Assembly (NCBI RefSeq): GCF_965247905.1
Contig: NZ_OZ252047.1
Location: 196,938 to 260,937 of the forward strand
Length of the DNA: 64,000 nt
Origin: Candidatus Spongiihabitans sp.
GTDB taxonomy: Bacteria; Pseudomonadota; Gammaproteobacteria; Arenicellales; Poriferihabitantaceae
Direction: 5' to 3'
Part shown: piece by piece, positions 1 to 53,661 of the stretch
Position numbering within the stretch: the first letter of the stretch is position 1
How the letters are laid out: every line of letters begins with the position of its first letter
Position numbers and translations under genes: made by a program
Notes under the pieces: model-generated
What the model saw: only the letters and a program-made list of their open reading frames with translations
What the model was told of the DNA's origin: nothing
The model's database searches: none

Positions 1-47
1 TAATCCTAATCTATCTTTGGCGTTTTGTCAACTCTTTAATCAAATTC

Positions 48-1398: not shown

Positions 1399-1414
1399 CT
1401 CTTTAATCAAATTC

Positions 1415-1645
1415 CTTTCGATTTTGTCAACTTTCCTTGATAGTTCCCTTTTTTATTTACATGGATGTAAGGGCAAATAATTGCTCCTGCATTATTTGCA
1501 CTCCCGCCATCCGTGGCGGTCGTATGCCGATTTTGCAGGAGCAAAAAATCGGCGATTGACATGGATGTAAGGGCAAATAATTGCTCCTCGGCAATTGCTC
1601 CTGCATTGCTCTAATAAGTTACGTCCATGTAACGATGCATTATTT
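1415..1645. repeat. REP-like palindromic repeat region
   Basis: Direct repeat CATGGATGTAAGGGCAAATAATTGCTCCT occurs at about 1459 and about 1560. Hairpin GCAAATAAT-N9-ATTATTTGC is present. It also contains a lone copy of the MITE-B terminal repeat (TTGTCAACTTTCCTTGATAGTTCCC, about 1425-1449). Confidence 0.5.
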
Positions 1646-16558: not shown

Positions 16559-16823
16559 GAGATCAGGGTCAGAGTAGAAATTATTGGGGCTTGGGACCAG
16601 GTTTTTCTGGCTTCACTCTTCGTTGATAAAGTTGTTCAACTTGCTCCTTAAACCTTGCACTCCCAAATGCCATACAGCTATTTGTTGCATTTCTCAAATC
16701 ATCAACTAGTTCAACGTTAAAAATATCTTCAAACAAATCCCGATACTATACAAACATTACATTTTCAACGAATCAATTTGCTTAATTTTCTTAACAAATA
16801 ATTTCTACTCTGACCCTGATCTC
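16559..16823. mobile_element. MITE-A copy 1 (about 265 bp, about 25-bp terminal inverted repeats)
   Basis: GAGATCAGGGTCAGAGTAGAAATTATT ... AATAATTTCTACTCTGACCCTGATCTC. A near-identical copy lies at 26319-26598. No ORF. It abuts the ATL start codon. Confidence 0.75.
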
Positions 16824-16835
16824 TCTGGTCTCTCA

Positions 16836-17073
16836 CCGGCAATAACGCGGTGATGACGCAAGTCTGGATCGCGCTGTGCGTGTATTTACTCTTGGCGTTC
16901 ATCAAATTCCAGTCGTGGCTGGGCAAAAGCATGCGACAAATGCTCCGCCTGTTGCATCCTGACTTGTTCGACAAGCGCGACTTGATGGCGCTCTTGCGTG
17001 GCCACCCGCCCCCCAGGCCCGGCTTCAATCGCAATCAATCCTCGTTGCTGTGAAAGTTAATGGGACAGCAGTG
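16836..17073 (+). pseudogene. IS4-family transposase 3' remnant plus IS terminus (copy 1)
   Basis: Encodes NNAVMTQVWIALCVYLLLAFIKFQS...GFNRNQSSLL. It is near-identical to 25620-25866. The shared terminus ...CTGTGAAAGTTAATGGGACAGCAGTG ends at 17073. Confidence 0.75.
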
Positions 17074-17299: not shown

Positions 17300-19705
17300 T
17301 CAGTCCTTACCGCCGTTTCTTTTAAGCAGTTTTTCCACTGTAGTACTCCCTGTTTGCTTCGCGAAATGCAACGGTGTTTCGCCATAATCATTTGTCGCGT
17401 TTATATCCGCACCGTTTTGAATCAGTAGTGCGGCGACTTTGCCCGCATCTTTCAACGCGGCATGATGCAACGGCGTGTAGCCTTTGTTATTTTTCGCGTT
17501 TATATCCGCACCTTTTTGAATCAGTAGTGCGGCGACTTTGTCCGCATCCTTCCACGCGGCAACATGCAACGGTGTGTCGCCATCATCACGTTTCGCGTTT
17601 ATATCCGCACCTTTTTGAATCAGTAGTGCGGCGACTTTGTCCGCATCCTCCACAGCGGCATAATGCAACGGTGTTGCGCCAGAACCATTTTTCGCGTTTA
17701 TATCCGCACCTTTTTGAATCAGTAGTGCGGCGACTTTGCCCGCATCCAGCCACGCGGTAAAATGCAACGGTGTTGCGCCATCATCACGTTTCGCGTTTAT
17801 ATCCGCACCTTTTTGAATCAGTAGTGCGGCGACTTTGTCCGCATCCTCCACAGCGGCATAATGCAACGGTGTTGCGCCAGAACCATTTTTCGCGTTTATA
17901 TCCGCACCTTTTTGAATCAGTAGTGCGGCGACTTTGCCCGCATCCAGCCACGCGGTAAGATGCAACGGTGTTGCGCCATCATCATTTTTCGCGTTTATAT
18001 CCGCACCTTTTTGAATCAGTAGTGCGGCGACTTTGCCCGCATCATCCCGCGCGGCACCATGCAACGGCGTTTCGCCATATTTATTTTTCGCGTTTATATC
18101 CGCACTCTTTTTAATCAATAGTGCGGCGACTTTGCCCGCATCATTCCACGCGGTAAAATGCAACGGTGTGTCGCCAGGACCATTTTTCGCGTTTATATCC
18201 GCACCTTTTTGAATCAGTAGTGTGGCGATTTTGTCCGCATCATTCGCCGCGGCATAATGCAACGGTGTGTCGCCATCCCTATGCCAGCCATCATAATTCC
18301 TCCCGAACAAGCGCGGTGTTGTCTTCAATCCATCTGTCATGAGTTTGTTATCGGATTTTAATTTGGCATCCACCTTGGCGCCGGATTGCAACAGATGCTC
18401 CGCCAGCGTTGTGAAGTTCAACGTGGCAGCGTAGTGCAAGTCAGTCCAGTCGTTAGCATCCTTCGCCGTCGGCGAAGGCGGACGCCCGACCTTTGCCATA
18501 AATTGGGCAGTTTCATCGGCGAGGCGGGCGGCTTGTTCAGCAGCGATTCGTTGTTTTTCTTCCTCGGCGGCGATTCGTTGTTTTTCTTCATCGGCAGCAA
18601 TACGCTGTTGTTCTTGTTCAGCAACGATTCGTTGTTGTTCCTGCCATTTTTGATAGTGATTGCCGCCAAAAAACAACGCAGTAAACAGCAACAAAACGGC
18701 TATTATCACCAGCGGTTTTTTATGCGACGGGCGGGCTTCCGGTTTGGGGTTTTGCGGTGACGGAGGTGTGGCGTCGGGGGCTGTGCTAGGCACGGGGGCG
18801 GTGTCGACCGAAGGGCTTTCACCACCAAGCATCCGCAACCATTGCCCGACATCCTGCGGACGGTCTTTGGCATTTATCGATAAAGCGGATTCTATCGCCG
18901 CGATAAATTCGCCGCTGTAGCCTTCCGCCGACAATCGCGTCATCGGGTCCGGATTGCCAGTCGCCACTTCGGTGATACGCCAACTGCCTTCGGGCGGAGG
19001 GTGCCCGCTGATGGCGCGATACAACACCGCAGCCAGCGCGTATATGTCCGTGTATGCGCCCTGTCCGCCGCGCGTGGAATACTGCTCTGGCGGCGAATAA
19101 CCGGCTTTGACTATCGCGCTGATGCTGCGGCTACGTATCCCTATGGCTTGCCGCGCGGCACCAAAATCCAACAGCACCGGGCTGCCATCGGCACGGATGA
19201 TGATGTTGTCCGGCGAGATGTCGCGGTGCAATAATCCATCGGCATGCATGTGCTTGAGGGCATCCAGCAACGGGGCGATTATCGCGCCCAATGCGGGTTC
19301 GGATGGCGGTTGCGACAACGATTGCAGGTGCGCTTCGAAGCTCAAGCCGTCTTCGTAATCCAGCACCATATACGCGGTGTTATTGTCCTCAAAAATTTGA
19401 TGTACGCGCACGATGTTGGCGTGTCGAAATTTGGCGAGGTTGCGCGCTTCTTCCAAAAATCGGTCCAAGCCCCAGCGGTAATCTTCTTCATTACCGGCCG
19501 ATTTTGGATGCACGGTAACCCCCTCGCGCATCGCGAACTCGTTCGGCAGGTATTCCTTGACGGCAAAGCACGCGTGCAGGTCGGTGTCTTCCGCCAAATA
19601 GGTGACGCCGAAACCGCCTACGCCTAATACCGACAAGATTTCATATTGCCGCAACCGAGTTTCGGGCGGCAGTGCGGCTTTGTGTTCGGGGTCGGAGTGT
19701 TGCAT
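17300..19705 (-). CDS. Ser/Thr protein kinase - TM - coiled-coil - 11x ankyrin repeat protein
   Basis: Hanks kinase motifs (GVGGFGVTY, AVKEY, HRDISPDNII, DFGAAR, SPPE). Pro-rich linker. One TM helix (KKPLVIIAVLLLFTALFFGG). EQQRIAA 9-aa repeats. Then 11 ANK repeats (G.TPLH.AA....KVAALLIQKGADINAKN). Confidence 0.9.
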   Translation of the reverse strand: MQHSDPEHKAALPPETRLRQYEILSVLGVGGFGVTYLAEDTDLHACFAVKEYLPNEFAMREGVTVHPKSAGNEEDYRWGLDRFLEEARNLAKFRHANIVRVHQIFEDNNTAYMVLDYEDGLSFEAHLQSLSQPPSEPALGAIIAPLLDALKHMHADGLLHRDISPDNIIIRADGSPVLLDFGAARQAIGIRSRSISAIVKAGYSPPEQYSTRGGQGAYTDIYALAAVLYRAISGHPPPEGSWRITEVATGNPDPMTRLSAEGYSGEFIAAIESALSINAKDRPQDVGQWLRMLGGESPSVDTAPVPSTAPDATPPSPQNPKPEARPSHKKPLVIIAVLLLFTALFFGGNHYQKWQEQQRIVAEQEQQRIAADEEKQRIAAEEEKQRIAAEQAARLADETAQFMAKVGRPPSPTAKDANDWTDLHYAATLNFTTLAEHLLQSGAKVDAKLKSDNKLMTDGLKTTPRLFGRNYDGWHRDGDTPLHYAAANDADKIATLLIQKGADINAKNGPGDTPLHFTAWNDAGKVAALLIKKSADINAKNKYGETPLHGAARDDAGKVAALLIQKGADINAKNDDGATPLHLTAWLDAGKVAALLIQKGADINAKNGSGATPLHYAAVEDADKVAALLIQKGADINAKRDDGATPLHFTAWLDAGKVAALLIQKGADINAKNGSGATPLHYAAVEDADKVAALLIQKGADINAKRDDGDTPLHVAAWKDADKVAALLIQKGADINAKNNKGYTPLHHAALKDAGKVAALLIQNGADINATNDYGETPLHFAKQTGSTTVEKLLKRNGGKD
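17380..18260. repeat. 99-bp-period tandem DNA repeats encoding ankyrin repeats, including a near-perfect 198-bp duplication
   Basis: Units at about 17563-17760 and 17761-17958 are almost identical. The antisense track ORFs 17374-17760 and 17770-17958 end in identical 55-aa strings. Confidence 0.85.
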
Positions 19706-23367: not shown

Positions 23368-23918
23368 AATGGTTTGACCCGCCCATAATAAAACGCCGCC
23401 GGCCTGACCTGCTTCAAGCGCACCAGCCGGGCCAGGATGCGCCCAACCGTGCTGATGCTGAGAAGCAGACCCTGATCCCTGGACAACACCTTCCAGAGCT
23501 TGCGTTTGCCCCACAAGGGATAACGCCTGCGCAAGTGCAGCACTTGTTGCTCCTGCCGCGCTGTCCATTGTCGACCGCGCACGCGCTTTGGGCGACGGCT
23601 TTGATCTTCTAAGCCGTTCCAGCCATGCTGTTGATAACGCTCTAGCCAACGGTAGTAGGTCGCCTTCGGCCAGCCGATGGTTTTCAGGCATACGTCGTGC
23701 AGCCTGCTGATTTGAGCTCGGCATAGAGTTCCAGTTTCTTTATTCGGGCGATGGCGGGTTCACTGGCGGTGTCGGCAATCGCCCAACTGCGGCATGATTT
23801 GATACGCAGGCTTTTGATCTGCATCGGGTAGTCTCCTGTGATTTAAGTGAATTGATTTCACCTTAGACTACCCGATTTTCTTAACTAATAAAGTCTCATT
23901 TGTGTCTGAGCCCGGACA
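23368..23918 (-). mobile_element. IS481-family element, truncated copy (left end plus about the first third of the transposase)
   Basis: About 95% identical by eye to 31730-32275, including the terminal GTCTCATTTGTGTCTGAGCC(C/T)GGACA. Homology stops at about 23370, where the rRNA fragment begins. Confidence 0.75.
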
Positions 23919-25439: not shown

Positions 25440-25866
25440 AGTAATCACTATTTCTCATGAAGCAACACTTTAAGCACTTGCTCGCGCAAGCGGTGGACGA
25501 GTTGTGTCGGCAGGGCGTGTTGGAGCAGGGCGCGGATGCGGTTGCCGACCTTTATCAAGCGCGTTGGCAGGTGGAATTGTTCTTTAAGTGGATCAAGCAA
25601 AACCTGAAGATAAAGTCCTTCATCGGCGCCGGCAATAACGCGGTGATGACGCAAGTCTGGGTCGCGCTGTGCGTGTGTTTACTCTTGGCGTTCATCAAAT
25701 TCCAGTCGCGGCTGGGCAAAAGCATGCGACAAATGCTCCGCCTGTTGCATCTTGACTTGTTCGACAAGCGCGACTTGATGGCGCTCTTGCGTGGCGACCC
25801 GCCCCCCAGGCCCGGCTTCAATCGCAATCAATCCTCGTTGCTGTGAAAGTTAATGGGACAGCAGTG
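25440..25866 (+). pseudogene. IS4-family transposase 3' remnant plus IS terminus (copy 2)
   Basis: Contains the DDE C-terminal Y-2-R-3-E-6-K signature (LYQARWQVELFFKWIKQNLKIKSF). It ends with the same terminus as copy 1. Confidence 0.8.
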
Positions 25867-26071
25867 GTTGAGCAACTGCTCGCCGTCCTCCTAATCCGAG
25901 ACGAGAAGTACAGAAGAATAAAAGCTTTTTTACAGTCAAAATACTTGCTTACGGTACGGAAATAACTTTCAGAATGGAGTAGCCTTCAGCAAATAATCGC
26001 CGCTCACATCCAATTATTTATTCTGTATTGAGGTAACCCTCATTGGCACGCAAAAATGCGATTGCAAGTTC

Positions 26072-26318
26072 ATGAACAAACTTGATGACACACTCGATGA
26101 AATCATCTATCTGGCGCGGGAATATGGTTTAGTTCTGCGTGGCGTATTTTGCGTCAATGAAGATGACAATGTGCCAGAAATCGCCGAGGGCGTTCACGCA
26201 TCAACGCTGATTTTATTTGGTAATGCGGGTTCTTCGTTTTGGGAATGTTTTTCAGGCTCGAGAGAGGTTGCTGATGGTCAGGCCGACCCATTGAACCGGT
26301 GGAGTCAAAGAGTGGGCG
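26072..26318 (+). pseudogene. 5' fragment of a hypothetical gene truncated by MITE-A copy 2
   Basis: The ORF reads MNKLDDTLDEIIYLAREYGL...DPLNRWSQRVG and then runs into the MITE terminal repeat. Confidence 0.4.
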
Positions 26319-26598
26319 CAGATCAGGGTCAGAGCGCAGATCAGGATCAGAGTAGAAATTATTGGGGCTTGGGAGCAGGTTTTTCTGGCTTCACTCTTCG
26401 TTGATAAAGTTGTTCAACTTGTTCCTTAAACCTTGCACTCCCAAATGCCATACAGCTATTTGTTGCATTTCTCAAATCATCAACTAGTTCAACGTTCAAA
26501 ATATCTTCAAACAAATCCCGATACTATACAAGCATTACATTTTCAACGAATCAATTTGCTTAACAAATACAAATAATTTCTACTCTGACCCTGATCTC
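26319..26598. mobile_element. MITE-A copy 2 (left terminal repeat partially duplicated)
   Basis: Near-identical to 16559-16823. The left end shows CAGATCAGGGTCAGAG followed by CGCAGATCAGGATCAGAGTAGAAATT. The right end is AATAATTTCTACTCTGACCCTGATCTC. Confidence 0.75.
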
Positions 26599-26795
26599 TG
26601 CCGCAAGCCGACCCCGACATTATCATTTCCGGACGCGGCGACGTGTCTATGTGGAAAAAATGGACTTCGCTGAGCGCGGTGGCGCACGATGGATTTATAT
26701 TCATCGACGGCAATGTGATGCACCGCCACACCGCACGCATGATTCTCGGCATCCGCGGACTGTGCGAACAGATCGACCGGGTGCGAAATTGAAAG

Positions 26796-26875
26796 GAGTC
26801 CGGCTACGCCGGACGGCATATTCCACTGGATTGCCCGGCCAATAATAATATGGGCCGGGCAATGACGAGTTGGGG
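26796..26875. repeat. Third copy of the approximately 90-bp REP-like unit seen at about 2078 and about 2292
   Basis: GGAGTCCGGCTACGCCGGACGGCATATTCCACTGGATTGCCCGGCCAATAATAATATGGGCCGGGCAATGACGAGTTGGGG, with the hairpin TGCCCGGCC-N11-GGCCGGGCA. Confidence 0.6.
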
Positions 26876-31148: not shown

Positions 31149-32275
31149 TGTCCGGGTTCACCACCTATGAGACAAAATCAGGCAACCAAGGCAGGTTGCT
31201 GATAGTACGCCATCGGCGTCATTAAATCCAAACTATCGTGTGGCCGGTAATGATTATAGGTCCATTGGTAATGAACCAGTTCCTGGTTGATCGCGGCTGC
31301 CGTCAACGCTCCTTCATACAGCGGGCAGAACTCATAACGGCTGGTGCCATTGGCTCGCTCAACGCAACCATTCCATTCCGGCTTTTTAGGCGGCAACGCA
31401 ATAGAGGCAGGTCCAAGGCCTCGCAGGCTTGCTCAAACTCATCCCGAAACTCACTGCCGCCATCGACCTGTATCGAGCGGATTTTGAACGGCGCTTGTTC
31501 GATAAGGCAGATCAAAAAGTCTTTGGCGTTCCTGCTGGTCGCGCGGCTATAGGCTTTTAAGGCAACAAATCCGGCAGCCGGACAGGCTGCCTTGAACTCT
31601 TTGATGCTAAAGCCCGCTGGTAGTCCTACGCTCATGTGGTCAATCTGCACCCGCTCGCCTGGCCGCCTGGCGCGCATCCCATATGTCCAGCGCTTGGCGT
31701 GGTGCTTGAACTGGCAGCGGCATTTCGGCTTGACCCGCCCATAATAAAATGCCGCCGGCTTGACCCGCTTCAAGCGCACCAGCCGGTCCAGGATGCGCCC
31801 AACCGTGCTGATGCTGAGAAGCAGACCCCGATCCCTGAACAACACCTTCCAGAGCTTGCGTTTGCCCCACAACGGATAACGCTTGCGCAAGTGCAACACT
31901 TGTTGCTCCTGCTGCGCTGTCCATTGTCGACCGCGCACACGCTTCGGACGACGGCTTTGGCTTGCCAAGCCACGCCAGCCGTGCCGCCGGTAACGCCCTA
32001 GCCAACGGTAGTAGGTCGCCTTCGACCAGCCGATGGTTTTCAGGCATACGTCGTGCAACCTGCTGATTTGAGCTCGGCATAGAGTTCCAGTTTCTTTATT
32101 CGGGCGATGGCGGGTTCACTGGCGGTGTCGGCAATCGCCTGACTGCGGTATGATTTGATACGCAGGCTTTTTATCTGCATCGGGTAGTCTCCTGTGATTT
32201 AAGTGAATTGATTTCACCTTAGACTACCCGATTTTCTTAACTAATGAAGTCTCATTTGTGTCTGAGCCTGGACAC
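31149..32275 (-). mobile_element. IS481-family element, full length
   Basis: Imperfect TIRs: TGTCCGGGTTCACCACCTATGAGAC (31149...) versus the reverse complement of GTCTCATTTGTGTCTGAGCCTGGACA (...32275). A DDE integrase-type transposase lies inside. Confidence 0.8.
31178..32058 (-). pseudogene. IS481-family transposase, frameshifted
   Basis: The coding sequence is split between the 251-aa ORF (31303-32058) and the 72-aa ORF (31178-31396, ...NGCVERANGTSRYEF...YNHYRPHDSL) in different frames. Confidence 0.7.
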
Positions 32276-44442: not shown

Positions 44443-44811
44443 CGCCGCTTGCGGCTTGACGATAGCACTCACCCATGCACTGATTGGCAACGATGACGAG
44501 TTTGCCGCGCTATGCGATAACCTTGCCAGATAGAGCACAACGGCACGATCAGGTAATGATACTCAAGCGCGCAACGAATCCTTTACGCACGCAAGGCTCA
44601 TTCAGGCCATGCGGTGCGGGGGACGCTGTTCTCGTTAACCTGCCAGTCCACTGCATGAACACGGGTAACTGGCTCGAAGCCGTGGAGGCCGGTGGTGCAG
44701 CTGCCGCCCTGGTGGCATCGCAACGCGGTTGTGCCGCAGGCCCGCTTCCGATCAACTTAAATTCCTGCAGCAAAAGCAACCCATGAATCCTGCCGCCAAC
44801 TGGAGCTGACC

Positions 44812-44894
44812 TTGCATATTCCACACCACGACAACCAGAACCAGCCGATCGTAAACCGCAACGACAGCAGGGCTCCACTGTGTTTCTTTAACAT
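44812..44894 (+). pseudogene. 5' fragment (27 codons) of a second iolB paralog, split by the IS30 composite transposon
   Basis: GGAG followed by a TTG start at 44812. It reads (M)HIPHHDNQNQPIVNRNDSRAPLCFFN and joins in frame to 52905 onward (IVKLKKRETF...) once the transposon and one CAT copy are removed. Confidence 0.6.
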
Positions 44895-45955
44895 GGTGGT
44901 TTCTAGTTTCTATTGCAACAATTCATTAAAAGCCTCAAAAGGCGTTTTCCAGTTTAACGCGTTACGCGGTCGTCCATTTAATCGGTCTTGAGCCTTGCGC
45001 GCTTGATAAGCGCTGACTTGATTAAAGTCAGCGCCTTTCGGAAAGCGCCGCCTGATCAAGCCGTTGGCGTTCTCATTGGCGCCTCGTTCCCATGGACTGC
45101 GTGGAGGGGCAAAACAGACCGGCATGCGGGTCTCTTTCGTGAACAATCGATGCGCTGGCATCTCTTTGCCCTGATCATGGGTCAGGGTTGGTTTCATCTG
45201 TTTCGGTGTCGTTCGTGATTTGCGCGCAAACGCCTTGCGCGCCGTTTCGGCGTCCGGTCTCTTCAAGCGAACCAGCAACACCGTCCGGGTGGCGCGCTCA
45301 CCTAGCGCGCCAAGAGCGGATTGATGGCGTGCGCCCAGGATCAAGTCGCCTTCCCAATGACCGGGCACAGCGCGCTCAGCCACTTGCGCAGGCCGCTCTT
45401 CAATACTGATCATCTCCGGGATACGACCCCGACGGTCATTGCCCCGGCTCCGTGGCCGCCGCGCTGGTCGATGCTGCCGTAAACAACGCAACAGGGATTG
45501 ACGCAGACTCCCCCGAGGCAATACATACAAATACGTATAGAGGGTTTCGGCGCACACGCGCATCCGTTCATCCCCAGGATAATCTATCTTGAGCTTGGCG
45601 CTGATTTGAGCCGGCGACCACTGCTTGCGAAGTCCGTTGATGACGAGCCGACGCAAACCCGGGTCTTGAACCAACTTGCCCAAACGACGATAACACCGCC
45701 GCCGCGCCTTGTTGTCAGCGGTGACCGCCAAGTAATAAAATCCGCGCTTGTTACGGTTGATTTCACGACTGATGGTTGATGGGCTTCGATAGAGTGGACC
45801 GGCGATTGCACGGATGCCCGCACCACAATGACACAATACGCCGATGGCCTCTCGCTCCACCAAGCATAGACGACGATAAGCCTTCATTATTCAACGCCTC
45901 GCTTGATATTGTTGTACTCATACTATAGGTGTTGCGTTAGAATTTAGAGACCACC
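44895..45955 (-). mobile_element. IS30-family element, copy A
   Basis: Imperfect TIRs: GGTGGTTTCTAGTTTCTATTGCAACA... and ...TGTTGCGTTAGAATTTAGAGACCACC. 1061 bp. Confidence 0.85.
44910..45887 (-). CDS. IS30-family transposase
   Basis: 325 aa. HTH N-terminus plus a DDE core (HWEGDLI..., THDQGKEM, ANENANGLIRRRFPKG). Confidence 0.9.
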   Translation of the reverse strand: MKAYRRLCLVEREAIGVLCHCGAGIRAIAGPLYRSPSTISREINRNKRGFYYLAVTADNKARRRCYRRLGKLVQDPGLRRLVINGLRKQWSPAQISAKLKIDYPGDERMRVCAETLYTYLYVLPRGSLRQSLLRCLRQHRPARRPRSRGNDRRGRIPEMISIEERPAQVAERAVPGHWEGDLILGARHQSALGALGERATRTVLLVRLKRPDAETARKAFARKSRTTPKQMKPTLTHDQGKEMPAHRLFTKETRMPVCFAPPRSPWERGANENANGLIRRRFPKGADFNQVSAYQARKAQDRLNGRPRNALNWKTPFEAFNELLQ

Positions 45956-46031
45956 TTATTAAAAACCGTAACATCGATAATATAAACAGTTACTGAGGAA
46001 TCCCCAATTTCAGTGCCAATGCCATTGAGAA

Positions 46032-49000
46032 TTATTTACTGTCATTATCTTCCTCCCCAAACACACGAAACTGCTGCGACGTGGTGGCCGCATCCAATGA
46101 AATCTCTACAGATGAAGCGACCGCTTCAAGTTGACTCAGGGGATTATTAAGCACCTTTAACTCGTACTCTACGGTCTCGGTATCGATGGGTGTGAATCTG
46201 TATATGTAATATTTGTTCTTCCACTTGGCTGCCGTATTGACCTCGTTGATAGTCAATTTTACACGACCACCTGACCGTTTTTCCTTAGCCTCAATCACCC
46301 GCTCTATCAAAGCCGAACTCTGATCATCACCGGATTCGAATAAAGCCCTGTCTTCGGCACTGCGAAAACTAAGTAGGTCAGCGGTAATTGTTTCATAACC
46401 TGTTATATGGCCAATATATAAAGGGAATCTTCCTTGCTTCTCTTCAAATAGCTTCGCTAGGTCCTCGCCAGCTTTCCCGTCAGACGTTGCAGTAGAACCT
46501 GCTACCGCTCCGCCTAAGCCCGAGCCGCCACCTGATACGCGTACTCCTACACGGGCACCAGGTTTCTCGGTCACATGTTCTACTGGTTCGACGCCAATAG
46601 CCGAAGGCACATCCCAACCAGTCGTGGCTGGCTCAGGTTCAGCCGCAACGGATTGTACTGTGGGTTTTAAAGGAGGAGTTGGAGGAGGAACATTAGGCGA
46701 CGCCCCTTGAACAGGCCCTATGATCACCGAAGGTTCAGGCATCACTTGTTCTGCAGCCCCTTCGATCAAAGTCTGCAACATTGAATCTAAATCATCGTCA
46801 AGGTTATCCCCTAACATTTTACTCAGTAACTCAGGGCGTATTGACGCATCACATTGATAAATTTTCGAGAATGAGTCACCGTCGATAAGCCCAAAGATAG
46901 AAGCGATGGCATCACCGATCGTATTTGCCAACAATGGATTGTATGGGTCACCTGCATTTACGGGATTACAACAGACATAAAGATAACCGTCTTGAATTGA
47001 GTAAGACCAATGTGGCAAAGGATTATCCAATGTTTCTTGCTTAAAGGTAATTTGACTTTGTGCCTGCTCGCAAACCACAAGTTCTAACCCTTCAAATATA
47101 TTTCGACCTGGCGCTTTAGCAAAGTGACTGTGACGATAGATTTCTATGTACTTTTTAGCCGATTGGAAATGTTGATTGGCCAGCTCGGTACAAGCGGCAA
47201 CGCGGTGGCCAATAACTTTCTCATTGACCGCCTCTTTATCCAAAACATTGACCCTGAATAGACGCCGGACCTTATCAGCTCCACGCTTTTTGAGCAAACA
47301 GGCAACAGGAAGTGATTTCAGTAACTCTTGGGGAAAACCTTCCACGTCGACGTGGTAAGTCTCATTAACTGGGAAGTAGCCTTGCTCATCGCCGTGCTTA
47401 GCATAAATTCTACCTTCCTCAGCGAAGGCTTCGTAGTTAGCTCCGGTTTCATCTAGTTCAAAATCGACTGTTTTGATTAGAAAATTGTACAACTTTTTCG
47501 CCAAATCACCAGAGGTATCCTTTTCTGGTAGTTCAGCTAACAAGGCATAGATTTCCTCGGAGTCGAGATCGTCAACACTCTCTCTGACTCCCGCATTTAT
47601 CCAAGCATGTTTCAGCAGGCTTTGAGACAAGCTTAATTCCTCCATGCTTACTATTGTTGGCATTATCGGTCTGGGAAATAAACCCGCGACGGCTGCATCA
47701 TTCACCATACAATCAATAGGTGCCAGCGGCTTAAGCTTATTAGCCCTTAGCCATGGGCTGTATTTGACTTTCCAACGAATATACGATGGCAGTTCGCCTT
47801 GATAAATTCGAGCATACCGTGCCCTTGAAGGATAAAAACTCAACGTGCCATGTTGCTCGGAACCTTTTAACCAGGAAACAGCTCGAGGGTCATTGGCCAA
47901 CCAAGCTAAGATAGCGTCGCTCTCGCTAGAAAGAATCACATCAATATCATCAAGCGACTTTACAAACTGGAATTTGCTATTAGTAGGTAGCTTTTTTACA
48001 GAGTCGAAAACGTGTATAGCATTTTCTCCAAATATAGCGGGGTATTTTAGCCTTTGCTTTGCGTAATCAAGAAATTCCGACTCGACCTGCATATTGTCAC
48101 TTAGCCTTGGCCATTCAGCCACGCCTAACCAAGCTAGAAATGTAGGTAGCGAGGCTCGCTCGATTCCCATTGATTCGTAAACTGATGACTCAGCTGCTAA
48201 TTTTCTTGGCGCAGATTGATACAGCCGACTAACGATATCTCCCGCAGCGGTATAGCCTGCACCAATGTAGAGTTGACTGGCACCCACCCACTCTGAGTTC
48301 TGGTTTAAAAGAATAGCATTCAATCGTTTAGGGAATTCTGGACGATCTTCCTCATTGCTATAAGAACTAAACAGCGTAAAGAGCGAATGCAATAATGCAG
48401 AACGGACTTGATCCTCATCCAGCTCATTGACTGCGACATTGGCTGACGAGACTAGACCTGCAATCATATTACCTAAGGAATATTCATGCACATCGAAAAC
48501 AGCTAAGTCTCGGGCGCTATCTCTTACCTTATTCCCCCGAAGCAACCCCCAGAGCCGTTCATTGAGTATTTTAACTTTTGCCCATTCAGGAAACACCAAC
48601 CCATCAGTTAAACTACTGCCAGGTAAATACACACCATCATCTTCGGATAGCTCATCACCCTGAGTATCTAACAACAGTCCCTTATAGCAGTAATCACTCC
48701 CCAAACGTTGATTGATTATCCCTAAAGCCACTGCTGCCCGCTGCTCCAGAGTTATATCGCTAGCCGCTTGCAATTGCGCGACAAACTGCTCACCCTTTAT
48801 GTGCTCAACACCCAGTCGATCAAACAGCTGCTTCTCCGTGGCGTTTCTAGCCATAACAATAGAGGGGAATATAGTTGCTGGTAACCATTCCAAAGCATTA
48901 ACACCCTTAGGGGAAGCAAACACTTCTGCTGCCGTGAGCATATCGCCAGACAGTACAGGAAGGATATTCCGTGTTTTAATCGCGTCGATTAAGGCCCCCT

Positions 49001-50195
49001 GTAAAGATTTAATATCCGACTGGTAGTCTTGCTGTAGCGAAGCAGGGTCAAGTAAATCTAGAGCACGATAGACATCACCGGACGCATCGACCTGCCGTTC
49101 AAAGATATCAGCCAAGAAAAGTGCTAAGCACTCCAGCACATAATCATTCGCCTCGCCTTCCCGCAAATGTTTACGATTTTGTTCCAACTCTAAGCTTGCA
49201 TGACATAAAGCGTGGAGAGGAAGCGGTATGGAAGTGGGGAAAAAGGAATACAAGTTCGCTGGCTCAGCCAATCCTTCATCGTTTAAAGCAACTATTAGTT
49301 GATAACTATCGGGGTCATCACTATCGCGCAGGAGGTCGTTTGGAATTTCACCTGTATCACTGAATAGCCTCCATCGCTTGCAGGTTTCGATATCACTATT
49401 AGGATCAAGCTCAGTAAGGTCAACCAAGTGTTCAGAAACAACCTCCGAACTCCATTCTTTAACCCAAGTCTCGTCCTCATGTTCACCAACTACTGAAACC
49501 GACAACGACTCAATGGAATCAGAAAACAGTAAAAATTCAGGGCGCAATAAGCTTAACTGATTAAGTGCATTATCATAGCTGTGAGCGCTGCCAAATGGCA
49601 TACCGACAACTGTCTCAAAACCAGTTTCAATCAACGATTCACAATTCTTGAACAAATCCGCATCAACGACAAAATGGCGCAGCTCAACTTTCGACAAATC
49701 GACCGGGAATGGTAATAAGGGTACTGGGTCAGTAGCCTCCCCCTGGTATTTCGCTAACTCTTCGCCTACAATGCTATATTGGCTTTTTAATTCATCTACT
49801 AAGCCATGAGCATAACGACTGCTAAAGGCCAGTTGTAACGCGCCACTAATAATCATCGGGTGGCGGGACCAATTGAGCACTGAACGAAAGCCCAAGCCTT
49901 TGCTGCCGATCAGCTGGCTATTTTTCGCGCGCTTGGGGCTTAAGTCAGCCGTTTGCAGCGAACTGACCCCACCTGTGGTAAAACCTAGTCCTGTATTCGC
50001 AACAATCAAGCCTTGGGGAGTGAGTTCAATCCGAATACGACTGCGTTGACCTGCTTTCCTAGCTGCATCCGCAGCGTTCTGTAACAGCTCAAGAATTTCG
50101 CGGCCTTTGTAGTCCCGAGAAATACCCTCTTCGCGTCGCTGATCAGCAACTAACTGGGAGGGTTTAATTCGGGAACTATCAAGGAAAGTTGACAA
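46032..50195 (-). CDS. Giant GHKL (sacsin/MORC-like) ATPase with a C-terminal DUF3883 restriction-endonuclease-like domain; 5' end displaced by a MITE insertion
   Basis: Bergerat motifs ILELLQNAADA, VANTGLGF, IGSKGLGFRSVLNW near the N-terminus. The C-terminal roughly 120 aa has a (D)...E-x-K pattern (ITADLLSF...IERVIEAKEK...LTINEVNTAAKWKNKYYIYRF) typical of DUF3883. The annotated TTG start lies inside the MITE terminal repeat. Confidence 0.8.
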   Translation of the reverse strand: MSTFLDSSRIKPSQLVADQRREEGISRDYKGREILELLQNAADAARKAGQRSRIRIELTPQGLIVANTGLGFTTGGVSSLQTADLSPKRAKNSQLIGSKGLGFRSVLNWSRHPMIISGALQLAFSSRYAHGLVDELKSQYSIVGEELAKYQGEATDPVPLLPFPVDLSKVELRHFVVDADLFKNCESLIETGFETVVGMPFGSAHSYDNALNQLSLLRPEFLLFSDSIESLSVSVVGEHEDETWVKEWSSEVVSEHLVDLTELDPNSDIETCKRWRLFSDTGEIPNDLLRDSDDPDSYQLIVALNDEGLAEPANLYSFFPTSIPLPLHALCHASLELEQNRKHLREGEANDYVLECLALFLADIFERQVDASGDVYRALDLLDPASLQQDYQSDIKSLQGALIDAIKTRNILPVLSGDMLTAAEVFASPKGVNALEWLPATIFPSIVMARNATEKQLFDRLGVEHIKGEQFVAQLQAASDITLEQRAAVALGIINQRLGSDYCYKGLLLDTQGDELSEDDGVYLPGSSLTDGLVFPEWAKVKILNERLWGLLRGNKVRDSARDLAVFDVHEYSLGNMIAGLVSSANVAVNELDEDQVRSALLHSLFTLFSSYSNEEDRPEFPKRLNAILLNQNSEWVGASQLYIGAGYTAAGDIVSRLYQSAPRKLAAESSVYESMGIERASLPTFLAWLGVAEWPRLSDNMQVESEFLDYAKQRLKYPAIFGENAIHVFDSVKKLPTNSKFQFVKSLDDIDVILSSESDAILAWLANDPRAVSWLKGSEQHGTLSFYPSRARYARIYQGELPSYIRWKVKYSPWLRANKLKPLAPIDCMVNDAAVAGLFPRPIMPTIVSMEELSLSQSLLKHAWINAGVRESVDDLDSEEIYALLAELPEKDTSGDLAKKLYNFLIKTVDFELDETGANYEAFAEEGRIYAKHGDEQGYFPVNETYHVDVEGFPQELLKSLPVACLLKKRGADKVRRLFRVNVLDKEAVNEKVIGHRVAACTELANQHFQSAKKYIEIYRHSHFAKAPGRNIFEGLELVVCEQAQSQITFKQETLDNPLPHWSYSIQDGYLYVCCNPVNAGDPYNPLLANTIGDAIASIFGLIDGDSFSKIYQCDASIRPELLSKMLGDNLDDDLDSMLQTLIEGAAEQVMPEPSVIIGPVQGASPNVPPPTPPLKPTVQSVAAEPEPATTGWDVPSAIGVEPVEHVTEKPGARVGVRVSGGGSGLGGAVAGSTATSDGKAGEDLAKLFEEKQGRFPLYIGHITGYETITADLLSFRSAEDRALFESGDDQSSALIERVIEAKEKRSGGRVKLTINEVNTAAKWKNKYYIYRFTPIDTETVEYELKVLNNPLSQLEAVASSVEISLDAATTSQQFRVFGEEDNDSK

Positions 50196-50386
50196 GCCCC
50201 GGATTCACTTGACTTCCCGCATAACTAGCTTACCGCCGACAACAACGAGTTTAAAGTGACGTTTGAGGTCTGATTTTTTAACAAGAGGCACCTTACCACG
50301 AGGTTTCGGCATAGCTAACAAAGCGCGGGTGGATTTATCTGTTTGTTTCATTCTTGGCGTTTTGTCAACTTTCCTTGATAGTTCCC
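50171..50386. mobile_element. MITE-B (216 bp) with perfect 25-bp terminal inverted repeats and an 8-bp TSD
   Basis: GGGAACTATCAAGGAAAGTTGACAA (50171-50195) and its exact reverse complement (50362-50386). They are flanked by TTTAATTC at 50163-50170 and 50387-50394. Confidence 0.85.
50205..50351 (-). CDS. 48-aa basic ORF inside MITE-B (speculative)
   Basis: ATG at 50351. Encodes MKQTDKSTRALLAMPKPRGKVPLVKKSDLKRHFKLVVVGGKLVMREVK. Below the track length cutoff and with no family signal. Confidence 0.2.
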   Translation of the reverse strand: MKQTDKSTRALLAMPKPRGKVPLVKKSDLKRHFKLVVVGGKLVMREVK

Positions 50387-50530
50387 TTTAATTCCGTAAA
50401 CCTGAAGAGCAATGTCCTGCTGCTCCGCCAGCCAAATGCTCCATTCGACGGCACTGCCTAGAGCAAGACCCTCTGTGGACATTTCACGCTCGGGTGTAAT
50501 GACGACAGGGTTTAGCGGCTCTTGGGCCAT
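50387..50530 (-). pseudogene. Original first 48 codons of the giant GHKL/DUF3883 gene, separated by MITE-B
   Basis: MAQEPLNPVVITPEREMSTEGLALGSAVEWSIWLAEQQDIALQVYGIK joins in frame to PSQLVADQRREEGISRDYKGREILELLQNAADA when the MITE and one TSD copy are removed. Confidence 0.7.
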
Positions 50531-50739
50531 GGCTTAAACAAATCCTTGTGGGCTAGTCATTCTTAGTCACCTATATATTGGTATCAGATCAGGCAGCATA
50601 CATCTCGCCAACAAGCTGATCGACCGAATGAATTAGATCAATATCTGACACTGAAAAATTTTTTTAGTTTTCCTCTTCTGGCAGTTCTTTTAGGGCTTCA
50701 TTTAATCCTCTGTAAGGCGCAAAAGCCTCTCGGATAATC

Positions 50740-51198
50740 CAGATTATTGCATGGCTCTCCTTCTGGATCGGAGTGCCAAAGGTATCTGAGCTTATACACC
50801 TGTTTATCGCGGCCTATGACGCCAAATACCCGAAGGCGACGCTGTGCTTACAGAAAGACCGGGAGGAGCTGATGGCATTCTACGACTTTCCCGCCATGCA
50901 CTGGCAGAGCATCCGCACCAGCAACCAGATTAATCGACCTTCGGCACCATCCGGCACCGAACCATCCGGCACCGAACCAAGCGCTCAAAGGGCTACCTCT
51001 CCAGAGATGGCATGCTACACATGATGTTCAAGCTGGGCATGTGTGCGGAGAAAAAATGGCATCGCCTGCGCGGGTTTAACTACTTGGCGAAGGTGATCAC
51101 GGGAATAGAATTTAAAGATGGAATCGAGGTAAAAGAAATTGACCGGGTCGCCGCTTGAATCAGGTGCTGAAACACCACTTTTGACAATAACTCTGTCC
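50740..51198 (+). pseudogene. IS256-family transposase 3' remnant (5'-truncated, frameshifted, 15-bp internal duplication) with IS terminus
   Basis: Encodes ...YPKATLCLQKDREELMAFYDFPAMHWQSIRTSN, then after a frameshift STFGTIRHRTIRHRTKRSKGYLSRDGMLHMMFKLGMCAEKKWHRL. The end ...CTTTTGACAATAACTCTGTCC is IS256-like. Confidence 0.75.
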
Positions 51199-51404
51199 TA
51201 TAGTTCATTTTCTTTGATTTCTGCAATACGCATCAATGCTTTTTGGAGTCCTGTCTTCAGGTCTTTATTTCCATGGACTGGAACCGAAATACGTTCTCTT
51301 CTTCCATCCATGATAAATATATGGTGACTGCTTGAGATTCTTTTCAATTCCCAGCCTTTTCGTTCCAAAAGTTTACACAATTCTTTGCCGGAGACGGTTT
51401 TCAT
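51198..51404 (-). CDS. hicA: HicA-family mRNA interferase toxin
   Basis: 68 aa. SGKELCKLLERKGWELKRISSSHHIF...ISVPVHGNKDLKTGLQKALMR is the HicA dsRBD-like signature, including the catalytic His. Confidence 0.85.
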   Translation of the reverse strand: MKTVSGKELCKLLERKGWELKRISSSHHIFIMDGRRERISVPVHGNKDLKTGLQKALMRIAEIKENEL

Positions 51405-51604
51405 ACCGCTAACTCTATAACTTCAGCTTCTTCATCGACTTCCGGCTCCTCGATATCAATGGATAAACAGCCAAGAATTGCATCTTCGATATTTATTTTT
51501 ATTTCTTTCATTGTATCACCTTGTGACACACATCCGGGTATTGAGGGCACTTCAGCCCAAAAGCCACCTTCTTCTGCTTTGTGAACTACAACTTTAATTT
51601 TCAT
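51401..51604 (-). CDS. hicB: HicB-like (UPF0150) antitoxin, short form
   Basis: 67 aa. VVVHKAEEGGFWAEVPSIPGCVSQGDTMKE...NIEDAI is the HicB N-terminal RNase-H-like partial fold. 4-nt overlap with hicA. Confidence 0.8.
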   Translation of the reverse strand: MKIKVVVHKAEEGGFWAEVPSIPGCVSQGDTMKEIKINIEDAILGCLSIDIEEPEVDEEAEVIELAV

Positions 51605-51840
51605 AGGAACAACATACCTGCATAGCGTTAATTTTTCAATTCATAAATAGAACGTCGAAGTTACTCATTTTAATTTAATTAGCTCTTAATGTTCTGTAAA
51701 ATGGTATGCTCCAGTGTTCCATTCGTATTACAGACTATCCAACGCTTACTAACATTACTTTCGAATGCCTCAAAATGAGCCTAATAGTTGCTCTTGTTTG
51801 ATTCTCTCCAACTTCAACTACCATAATATTCATTTTCATT

Positions 51841-52901
51841 GGTGGTCTCTAGTTTCTATTGCAACAATTCATTAAAAGCCTCAAAAGGCGCTTTCCAGTT
51901 TAACACGTTACGCGGTCGTCCATTTAATCGGTCTTGAGCCTTGCGCGCTTGATAAGCGCTGACTTGATTAAAGTCAGCGCCTTTCGGAAAGCGCCGCCTG
52001 ATCAAGCCGTTGGCGTTCTCATTGGCGCCTCGTTCCCATGGACTGCGTGGAGGGGCAAAACAGACCGGCATGCGGGTCTCTTTCGTGAACAATCGATGCG
52101 CTGGCATCTCTTTGCCCTGATCATGGGTCAGGGTTGGTTTCATCTGTTTCGGTGTCGTTCGTGATTTGCGCGCAAACGCCTTGCGCGCCGTTTCGGCGTC
52201 CGGTCTCTTCAAGCGAACCAGCAACACCGTCCGGGTGGCGCGCTCACCTAGCGCGCCAAGAGCGGATTGATGGCGTGCGCCCAGGATCAAGTCGCCTTCC
52301 CAATGACCGGGCACAGCGCGCTCAGCCACTTGCGCAGGCCGCTCTTCAATACTGATCATCTCCGGGATACGACCCCGACGGTCATTGCCCCGGCTCCGTG
52401 GCCGCCGCGCTGGTCGATGCTGCCGTAAACAACGCAACAGGGATTGACGCAGACTCCCCCGAGGCAATACATACAAATACGTATAGAGGGTTTCGGCGCA
52501 CACGCGCATCCGTTCATCCCCAGGATAATCTATCTTGAGCTTGGCGCTGATTTGAGCCGGCGACCACTGCTTGCGAAGTCCGTTGATGACGAGCCGACGC
52601 AAACCCGGGTCTTGAACCAACTTGCCCAAACGACGATAACACCGCCGCCGCGCCTTGTTGTCAGCGGTGACCGCCAAGTAATAAAATCCGCGCTTGTTAC
52701 GGTTGATTTCACGACTGATGGTTGATGGGCTTCGATAGAGTGGACCGGCGATTGCACGGATGCCCGCACCACAATGACACAATACGCCGATGGCCTCTCG
52801 CTCCACCAAGCATAGACGACGATAAGCCTTCATTATTCAACGCCTCGCTTGATATTGTTGTACTCATACTATAGGTGTTGCGTTAGAATTTAGAGACCGC
52901 C
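51841..52901 (-). mobile_element. IS30-family element, copy B
   Basis: Same sequence as copy A apart from a few substitutions. The ends are GGTGGTCTCT... and ...GAGACCGCC. Confidence 0.85.
51856..52833 (-). CDS. IS30-family transposase
   Basis: 325 aa. Differs from copy A at 2 residues near the C-terminus (NVLNWKAPF versus NALNWKTPF). Confidence 0.9.
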   Translation of the reverse strand: MKAYRRLCLVEREAIGVLCHCGAGIRAIAGPLYRSPSTISREINRNKRGFYYLAVTADNKARRRCYRRLGKLVQDPGLRRLVINGLRKQWSPAQISAKLKIDYPGDERMRVCAETLYTYLYVLPRGSLRQSLLRCLRQHRPARRPRSRGNDRRGRIPEMISIEERPAQVAERAVPGHWEGDLILGARHQSALGALGERATRTVLLVRLKRPDAETARKAFARKSRTTPKQMKPTLTHDQGKEMPAHRLFTKETRMPVCFAPPRSPWERGANENANGLIRRRFPKGADFNQVSAYQARKAQDRLNGRPRNVLNWKAPFEAFNELLQ

Positions 52902-53661
52902 CATCGTAAAACTAAAAAAGAGGGAAACCTTCCGCTCACAAGTTGAAGGCTACGAAACCTGTATCGTGCCGACTACCGGCAGTATTGATGTCATTGTACC
53001 GGGCGCATCTTACCAGAAGGTGGGAAAGCGCAGGCATATCTGGGAAGGCGATCCAGAAGGCGTCTATATCCCCACGGGTGTTGAGGCCAATCTTAACTGC
53101 GTGAGTGATGCGGCGGAAGTTTTCATCGCCGGCGCTCGACACGACGAAGTATATGAACCCTTCGTCGTGCGTGAGAGCGACATCGACCCGGTACAGTATG
53201 GCTCCGATGACACTAAAACCCACCGCAAGATCAAACACATTCTAGGCAAGAGTCCGGCAGGAAAAGTCGGCCGGCTGCTGGTAAGCGAGCTGTTTACAGT
53301 GGGCGCCGGCGGCTGGTCCGGATTTCCGCCACACAAGCATGATACCGATCATCTGCCCGAGGAAACCCGTCACGACGAGGTGTATCACTTTCGTTTCAAT
53401 CCATCTCATGGATTCGGAGCCCAGTTTCTCACTCAGGCAGGAGAAGATTACGGCGATGTCTGCCACATCCGAAACAGGTCCACTATCCTCATCGACCAGG
53501 GCTACCACCCCTGTGTCGCTGCTCCCGGATACGAAATGTACTACTTTACGGTGCTCGCAGGCCTGTCGCAGAGACCCTTGCACCAGCGCTTCCATCCGCA
53601 ACACGCTTACCAACTGGACACCATCCCCGGCATCAAAGACATGATCAACAAGTTCAAGTAG
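52902..53661 (+). pseudogene. 3' portion (about 252 codons) of the second iolB paralog (5-deoxy-glucuronate isomerase family)
   Basis: IolB signatures GWSGFPPHKHD...LPEETRHDEVYHFRF and GYHPCVAAPGYEMYYFTVLAG. The reading frame is open right up to the IS30 end. Confidence 0.75.

Follow-up and report, generated by a model that had tools for sequence, protein, structure and literature searches.

We analysed a window of 64,000 nt (NZ_OZ252047.1 of assembly GCF_965247905.1, positions 196,938-260,937, forward strand) from Candidatus Spongiihabitans sp. (Gammaproteobacteria, Arenicellales, Ca. Poriferihabitaceae), a sponge symbiont in which the locus is chromosomal, on a contig of 3.03 Mb. The minus strand of the window carries, from 46032 to 50530, a single open reading frame (ORF) that is cut in two by an element of 216 bp and that encodes TmtA, the protein of the one-gene defence system Tiamat. 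As the gene now stands, two ORFs are read from the minus strand, one of 1,387 amino acids (aa) at 46032-50195, whose start is a TTG within the insert, and one of 60 aa at 50348-50530. The 5′ part of tmtA (50387-50530) comprises codons 1-48 (M1-K48) including one copy of an 8-bp duplication, and its frame enters the insert and ends in a stop after 60 aa. The 3′ part (46032-50162, minus strand) comprises codons 49-1424 and the stop codon. In-silico removal of the element and of one duplication copy yields a single uninterrupted ORF of exactly 1,424 codons, and it is this restored protein that was compared with the PADLOC model PDLC03964. An earlier reading of this DNA made from its letters (the sequence-only reading) had given the coordinates, the conserved motifs and a restored length of 1,424 aa, all of them correctly. 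Its impression by eye that the region is AT-richer than its surroundings is borne out by the guanine-cytosine (GC) content, which is 46.2% in tmtA against 56.6% on either side.

The insert (50171-50386) is a miniature inverted-repeat transposable element (MITE). It is bounded by perfect terminal inverted repeats of 25 bp (GGGAACTATCAAGGAAAGTTGACAA; 50171-50195 and 50362-50386) and flanked by a direct target duplication of 8 bp (TTTAATTC on the plus strand; 50163-50170 and 50387-50394). The 25-bp repeat has three occurrences in the window as opposed to none in 100 shuffles, the additional one being a solo copy at 1424-1448 that adjoins a separate insertion sequence (IS). The element thus combines the marks of a MITE, being short and without a transposase, with inverted repeats, a target duplication, exact restoration of the ORF upon removal and a further copy of its repeat elsewhere. 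Its only ORF is one of 48 aa, which begins MKQTDKSTRALLAMPKPRGK... and which found no match in a Pfam search. Since the insertion adds 224 bp (MITE and duplication), the tmtA frame is shifted, and because of this frame shift full-length TmtA cannot be made at present; the window copy, having no uninterrupted coding sequence, is a disrupted member of its family. The IS next to the solo repeat, within window positions 1-1448, has a transposase ORF of 408 aa (84-1310, plus strand) and lies between direct repeats of ~16 nt (CTCTTTAATCAAATTC; 32-47 and 1398-1413). Near it, at 17-33, is also a 17-nt match to the subterminal sequence of the MITE.

The identity of the interrupted gene follows from profile comparisons. 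The best PADLOC model for the restored protein is PDLC03964 (TmtA), which matches aa 27-1180 at E=6e-233 (profile positions 6-1139 of 1538), and its C-terminal 230 aa align with positions 1440-1535, at the end of that model (E=8.9e-8). Tiamat is described as a one-gene system with the domains 'Hsp90, DUF3684, DUF3883', of which the Bacillus cereus FORC_005 gene is marked as verified (Millman et al. 2022, supplement). The first 399 aa of this verified protein also have PDLC03964 as their best model (1.4e-138), and over its N-terminal 420 aa the window protein is 29% identical to it (E=9e-38), the comparison being restricted to the first 400 aa of the B. cereus protein, the extent of sequence given in that supplement. 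Both proteins are single giant polypeptides in which an Hsp90-like ATPase is followed by a long middle and a C-terminal DUF3883 domain, and they share the N-box and G2-box motifs as well as an Asn in 'IAN(N/T)G'. In contrast to the B. cereus TmtA of 1,590 aa, the window protein is ~165 aa shorter, comes from a gammaproteobacterial sponge symbiont and is interrupted by the MITE. The family is therefore one already named, Tiamat, which has been catalogued since 2022, and the locus adds a member to it, though a disrupted one. The PADLOC comparison that the sequence-only reading had proposed for its candidate defence gene thus led to a known defence family.

The N-terminal domain (~aa 62-262; 49521-50123, minus strand) is a predicted GHKL ATPase of the Hsp90/sacsin type. 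It matches NCBIfam NF047352 (sacsin N-terminal ATP-binding-like) over aa 69-152 with 67.6 bits (9.9e-19), well above the cut-off of 50, while Pfam SACS (3e-4) and HATPase_c both stay sub-threshold on the restored protein. The motifs ELLQNAADA (aa 73-81), NTGLGF (104-109) and GSKGLGFRS (134-142) contain the residues E73, N77, D80, N104-x-G106-x-G108 and G134-x-K136-G137-L-G139-F140, to which T232 is to be added. The ExxxNxxD residues E73/N77/D80 and the G134-K-G137-L-G139-F140 series are either invariant among family members or conserved in at least 90% of them. When aligned to the yeast Hsp82 N-domain with hhalign, ELLQNAADA corresponds to ELISNASDA and IGSKGLGF to IGQFGVGF, which pairs these residues with E33/N37/D40 and G118-F124. 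The label 'sacsin/MORC-like' given in the sequence-only reading can hence be kept in its first half. Its MORC half is not supported, the matches being to Hsp90 and sacsin (Pfam, NF047352 and Foldseek); an S5-fold MORC signature did not turn up, no search having been aimed at it.

Downstream of the ATPase lies a middle and distal body (~aa 263-790; 47937-49520, minus strand, the distal boundary being approximate), for which the evidence comes from an AlphaFold2 model of aa 49-1195 and from Foldseek. The model was built from an alignment of 61 sequences and has a mean predicted local distance difference test (pLDDT) score of 86.5. It places in the body a beta-rich domain, a loop (L374-R378-H380) that leads into a long helix, and modules of helical and of alpha/beta type. 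Searched against the PDB with Foldseek, it matches full-length HSP90B, TRAP1, GRP94, Hsc82 and HtpG (E 5e-8 to 1e-5, prob 1.00, 700-750 aligned columns). Much of the long middle, ~1,100 aa which the sequence-only reading had left as uncharacterised, is therefore probably the rest of an Hsp90/sacsin-like body, as judged from the model. R378, which is invariant in the family, sits in the model on the loop between a beta-strand and the long helix. The catalytic-loop arginines of Hsp90 (R380) and sacsin (R474) are found in the same layout of strand, Arg loop and long helix (PMC9880540), which makes R378 a candidate catalytic-loop arginine. TmtA and the sacsin/Hsp90 chaperones thus have in common the NF047352 match, ExxxNxxD and GxxGxGF, the strand/Arg loop/long helix layout and the Foldseek matches, but TmtA differs from them in its fused nuclease-fold domain, in lacking DnaJ, HEPN and Ubl modules and in its bacterial defence context.

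The part that follows, an alpha/beta region at ~aa 791-1183 (46758-47936, minus strand), is conserved in the family and modelled with block pLDDT values mostly of 80-95. It has no Pfam match and no match among PDB sequences, and neither phmmer nor the family profile, run against all PDB sequences, gave a significant match to a relative of solved structure. That the long middle is internally duplicated was also considered and rejected (hhalign among five segments, best probability 3%). A flexible linker rich in Pro, Ala and Gly (~aa 1184-1275; 46482-46757, minus strand) comes next; it marks the conservation minimum, is gapped and of variable length in the alignment, and has pLDDT values below 50 at aa 1184-1195 (model residues 1136-1147), the part of it that was modelled.

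The C-terminal domain (~aa 1276-1400; 46107-46481, minus strand) is a DUF3883/NOV_C domain of the PD-(D/E)xK nuclease fold. Its motifs ADLLSF, IEAKEK and KYYIYRF lie within aa 1309-1371; D1310 and K1341 are invariant, E1339 is at least 90% conserved, and E1288, N1354-E1355 and Y1369-R1370 are conserved, so that the predicted catalytic residues are present. Pfam PF13020 scores the window protein just below its cut-off of 22.1 (17.4 bits at full length and 21.9 bits for the isolated domain), and it is matched by the C-termini of all 25 family members compared (E<=0.01, best 1.2e-12). The AlphaFold2 topology of the domain is that of PD-(D/E)xK enzymes, and Foldseek relates it to Hjc resolvases (prob 0.98), a SPARDA nuclease and tRNA-splicing (EndA-type) endonucleases. 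By motif and modelled fold, the domain belongs to the PD-(D/E)xK superfamily, DUF3883 branch, and is a predicted nuclease; DUF3883 has been called a novel restriction endonuclease domain (PMC3710099), and one survey places Tiamat among the single-gene PD-(D/E)xK systems. With other DUF3883/NOV_C domains, such as those on SNF2 helicases in restriction-modification (R-M)-like operons, it shares the E...D...ExK core and the 'NE...A...YYxYR' tail. Unlike the helicase-fused ones, the domain of TmtA is tethered to an Hsp90-like body by a disordered linker of ~90 aa, and it stays 0.2 bits below the Pfam threshold. Of the two profile checks that the sequence-only reading had suggested for its domains, the one for GHKL gives a score above the cut-off (NF047352) and the one for DUF3883 falls short on the window copy and succeeds on its relatives, and the restriction-endonuclease fold proposed for the C-terminus is what both the model and Foldseek return.

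To place the gene in its family, we collected relatives and their neighbourhoods. A word-index protein search gave 283 matches, the best anywhere being 66% identical and from Undibacterium parvum. The species-representative genomes contain 209 tmtA-like loci, patchily distributed from haloarchaea to Verrucomicrobia, Bacteroidota, Vibrio and Shewanella; an intact allele was not found in these genomes, none of the best 80 of the 209 relatives being more than 34% identical. Relatives on plasmids are only five, all distant (28-31% identity, protein search), and among 2.9 million viral contigs there are only 10 distant relatives. A phage origin was rejected, since tblastn against 50,697 phage records gave no match, as was a plasmid origin, with no match to 72,556 plasmids in a megablast search of 44500-53300.

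The neighbourhoods resemble those of defence genes. Relatives of 56-59% identity, the closest full-length ones with usable context, lie between pglX and pglZ in type-1 bacteriophage exclusion (BREX) operons (loci L084 8001-12293, L085 8001-12293, L086 8001-12275 and L087 165-4439). The window copy, in contrast, lies outside BREX. A relative of 62% identity adjoins Eco29kI R-M, FRG and GmrSD genes, the neighbours of the U. parvum relative are three IS66 copies, AbiEii, an integrase fragment and a 1,229-aa reverse-transcriptase protein, and a Vibrio relative is preceded by HerA-like and kinase genes. Among 87 neighbouring genes pooled from 22 loci (up to two ORFs, the closest ones, on either side; raw counts), the commonest families according to PADLOC and Pfam are Mokosh MkoA, Septu PtuA/B, MADS, type I R-M subunits, ResIII, ankyrin, kinases and phage integrases. 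Relatives thus sit in a variable context of the defence-island type rather than among housekeeping genes. The sequence-only reading had held that its claim would fail if homologs were found mainly in conserved housekeeping contexts; because the neighbourhoods are variable, with BREX, R-M/GmrSD and IS-rich islands, this is not the pattern observed, and together with the PADLOC match they agree with its proposal of a defence gene. In the BREX-embedded relatives, the start of the gene abuts or overlaps the pglX stop, and an OLD-like TOPRIM gene and an integrase gene lie downstream in L084 and L085.

One further neighbour recurs. An ankyrin-repeat protein of ~906 aa (38-39% identity over the full length; PADLOC 'Ankyrin', PDLC02908) adjoins tmtA in five of 82 loci (L081 6897-9626, L006 14333-17053, L009 14349-17069, L010 14332-17052 and L041 14338-17058) and could be a partner of TmtA, perhaps even one that it requires. 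The ankyrin gene lies upstream of tmtA in Undibacterium and downstream in Rheinheimera, Alkalimonas and Shewanella. In Bacteroidota (loci L048, L051, L055, L057, L065, L069 and L075), TmtA-like genes of ~1,520-1,640 aa with 24-25% identity have co-oriented neighbours of ~700 and ~430 aa upstream and of ~1,090 aa downstream, which suggests that these genes are inserted inside type I R-M operons.

At the window locus, tmtA lies between two copies of an IS30-family element. Direct repeats of 1,059 bp at 44894-45952 and 51840-52898 differ at three positions (99.7% identity), and each encodes a transposase of 325 aa with HTH_38 and rve domains, which NCBI names IS30 family. With the imperfect terminal repeats of ~26 bp that both elements have, the left copy extends over 44895-45955 (minus strand, transposase 44910-45887) and the right copy over 51841-52901 in direct orientation, also on the minus strand. 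The outer flanks of the pair are both CAT (44892-44894 and its partner 52902-52904), which may be a target duplication of 3 bp made by the entire 8-kb unit; the inner flanks differ, and for neither IS copy do the two flanks match each other. The cargo has a GC content of 45% (tmtA 46%, hicBA 39%) compared with 57% on both sides and 55.5% in the IS copies. Besides tmtA it contains hicB (51401-51604) and hicA (51198-51404), which together span 51198-51604 on the minus strand, overlap by 4 nt and have 38.8% GC. Both genes are intact and make up a HicAB type II toxin-antitoxin pair (HicA_toxin 2.9e-18, 66.1 bits; HicB_lk_antitox 9.7e-8, 32.6 bits; cut-off 27 for each), with which the NCBI names agree. 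Between hicA and tmtA lies the remnant of an IS256-family (Mutator-type) transposase (50773-51024, plus strand; Pfam Transposase_mut 5.3e-7, positions 294-340 of 379 only). Because this transposase debris separates them, hicBA and tmtA are juxtaposed and do not form an operon. The link to hicBA seen in the sequence-only reading is thus one of shared residence within the IS30 unit.

The genes flanking the unit are of inositol-catabolism type and code for an ABC transporter, a Gfo/Idh/MocA-type oxidoreductase and a protein of the KduI/IolB family. A related assembly, GCA_001543005, is syntenic with the window at 89-90% nucleotide identity from 32570 up to 44446, where synteny stops directly after the Gfo/Idh/MocA gene and ~450 bp outside the left IS30 copy. 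As synteny breaks there (44447-44894) and different genes follow, the IS30 unit stands at a rearrangement boundary. In the relative (L083, 11126 onward) bipA/typA comes next, whereas the window has, beyond the transposon, a second gene of KduI/IolB type. Elsewhere in the window, self-BLAST revealed a tandem array at 17364-18277 with units of ~99 nt that are mutually 87-90% identical, and dispersed repeats of 549 bp (93.6% identity, 23371-23918 and 31727-32274), of ~240-265 bp (95-98%, 16560-17073 and 25629-26599) and of 76 bp (98.7%, 2090-2165 and 26792-26867). The dispersed repeats may be further mobile or repetitive elements of the symbiont genome.

Taken together, we consider it very probable that the locus is tmtA of Tiamat, recently broken by a MITE after codon 48 and lying as AT-rich, foreign cargo with hicBA and transposase debris between direct IS30-family copies. 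That these copies bound a composite-transposon-like unit of 8 kb is possible. The sequence-only reading had taken the gene for the cargo of a composite transposon; two direct IS30 copies do bracket it, but its movement en bloc depends on the match of the CAT flanks. On a different account, the island serves selfish maintenance only: hicBA would stabilise a decaying, IS30-bounded island in which tmtA is a passenger, and each IS copy may have inserted on its own beside an island already present. The intact hicA and hicB genes, both above their Pfam thresholds, would suit this account, as would a cargo hit repeatedly by mobile DNA (the IS256-type remnant and the MITE), the 3-bp duplication as sole support for joint movement and the loss of synteny beyond the left IS. 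However, en-bloc transposition with a 3-bp duplication would be expected to leave this very pattern, outer flanks that agree (CAT/CAT) and inner flanks that do not, and IS copies still 99.7% identical suggest activity in the recent past. We regard selfish maintenance as possible but rather doubtful, and it is in any case compatible with, and not exclusive of, a MITE-broken Tiamat gene in mobile cargo.

A second alternative concerns the state of the gene. The downstream part of tmtA has no stop in 1,376 codons, and the protein keeps 191 of the 194 positions whose conservation in 115 full-length relatives reaches 90% or more, which fits a recent MITE insertion. The same intactness could indicate that tmtA is still partly functional. 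The ATG of the 48-aa ORF in the MITE overlaps the stop of the upstream 60-aa fragment (ATGA), and this ORF is in frame with the downstream part of tmtA, with a single TGA between it and the TTG of the 1,387-aa ORF. Reading from this ATG and then from the in-frame TTG in the terminal repeat might thus give a TmtA without residues 1-48, the least conserved part of the protein. Yet a shared frame arises by accident with a chance of 1 in 3, four residues of the lost segment (W30, W33, L34 and Y45) are at least 90% conserved, and an intact ORF is equally expected soon after an insertion. A promoter and terminator scan of the cargo found no signals enriched over shuffles, so that a promoter-like signal does not rise above background. 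Moreover, a protein with this sequence is absent from a collection of 15 billion proteins in which neighbouring genes of the same contig are present, which suggests that annotators treated tmtA as a pseudogene. Partial function is accordingly improbable in our view, and tmtA is here most likely a recently inactivated defence gene that is off in this genome. That the protein is not a defence protein at all, but a sacsin/Hsp90-like chaperone or a MutL-like repair or recombination enzyme that came into the transposon by chance, is very improbable: chaperones are its best structural matches, sacsin repeats reportedly act as chaperone ATPases (PMC9880540) and MutL has the same layout of GHKL ATPase plus endonuclease, but the strongest sequence matches are Tiamat models, among them the best model of the verified protein, the relatives are patchy and lie within BREX, R-M and abortive-infection islands without conserved housekeeping neighbourhoods, the composition of the locus is foreign, and the host tolerates the disruption.

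Several observations weigh against the reading of the locus as a mobile, disrupted Tiamat gene with an Hsp90-like ATPase and a nuclease, or against parts of it. An Enterobacter TmtA candidate is marked 'x', no defence (Millman et al. 2022), so not every TmtA homolog is active in a heterologous host; this failed candidate fits a different TmtA model, PDLC03968. The DUF3684 domain listed for Tiamat was not detected by Pfam in the restored protein at E<=1. N104 (window ~49995-49997, minus strand) is an Asn across the TmtA clade where the motif order predicts the adenine-binding Asp of 'DxGxG', and the verified B. cereus TmtA likewise has an Asn at its G1 box (IANNGNPF). The hhalign alignment, at only 45% probability, takes another path in that stretch and does not set N104 against Hsp90 D79, so the placement comes from motif order. 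As Asn replaces the G1-box Asp, canonical ATP binding would not be assured. The Hsp90 structures found by Foldseek superpose poorly overall (root mean square deviation 13-16 Å), which is to be expected of a multi-domain protein but leaves the extent of the Hsp90-like body uncertain; modelling of the middle, as the sequence-only reading had advised, has to this degree answered what it is. For the nuclease domain, the Foldseek E-values are weak (0.05-0.4). The candidate ankyrin partner is absent from the window by tblastn. The chance of a 3-bp flank match is 1/64, which makes CAT weak evidence for en-bloc transposition. Finally, reviews and surveys give the mechanism of Tiamat as unknown, and the literature searched holds no published mechanism or structure.

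Because the mechanism is unpublished in that literature, a model for the intact protein is one of analogy only. The Hsp90-like module may act as an ATP-driven conformational clamp or sensor, which, like Hsp90, MutL and MORC, would close or dimerise in a nucleotide-dependent manner and would couple this to the recognition of an infection cue. The conformational cycle would then license the tethered PD-(D/E)xK domain to cut DNA, either that of the phage or DNA in general as abortive infection. MutL and MORC/paraMORC serve here as functional analogues only, in that the nucleotide cycle of a Bergerat-fold ATPase might control an endonuclease at the C-terminus; TmtA itself is best matched, in structure and in sequence, by Hsp90 and sacsin, and membership in the MutL or MORC families is not claimed. 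A bolder version, which we offer as speculation and think unlikely, is that Tiamat is a 'chaperone-type' immune sensor, in which a complete Hsp90-like body, with its ATPase, a middle domain bearing the catalytic-loop arginine and distal domains, takes a phage protein or a disturbance of proteostasis as its client and unleashes the DUF3883 nuclease via the tether, and that the MITE could be a reversible off-switch of a costly defence gene on an IS30 composite transposon.

For the family, the model with its Hsp90-like body of ~700 residues, conserved region, linker and PD-(D/E)xK domain names candidate catalytic residues for mutants, and the BREX-embedded and ankyrin-paired relatives are leads on how Tiamat is deployed. 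If chaperone-type sensing were true, its logic would be unlike that of the nucleic-acid-sensing GHKL systems (MORC, MutL), and the clade of the window protein, some of whose members lie in BREX operons or next to an ankyrin gene, would offer a practical way to study it. For the uncultivated sponge symbiont, the locus offers a snapshot of the gain and loss of immunity genes, in which a defence gene is the cargo of an IS30 unit together with a toxin-antitoxin pair and is then knocked out by a MITE.

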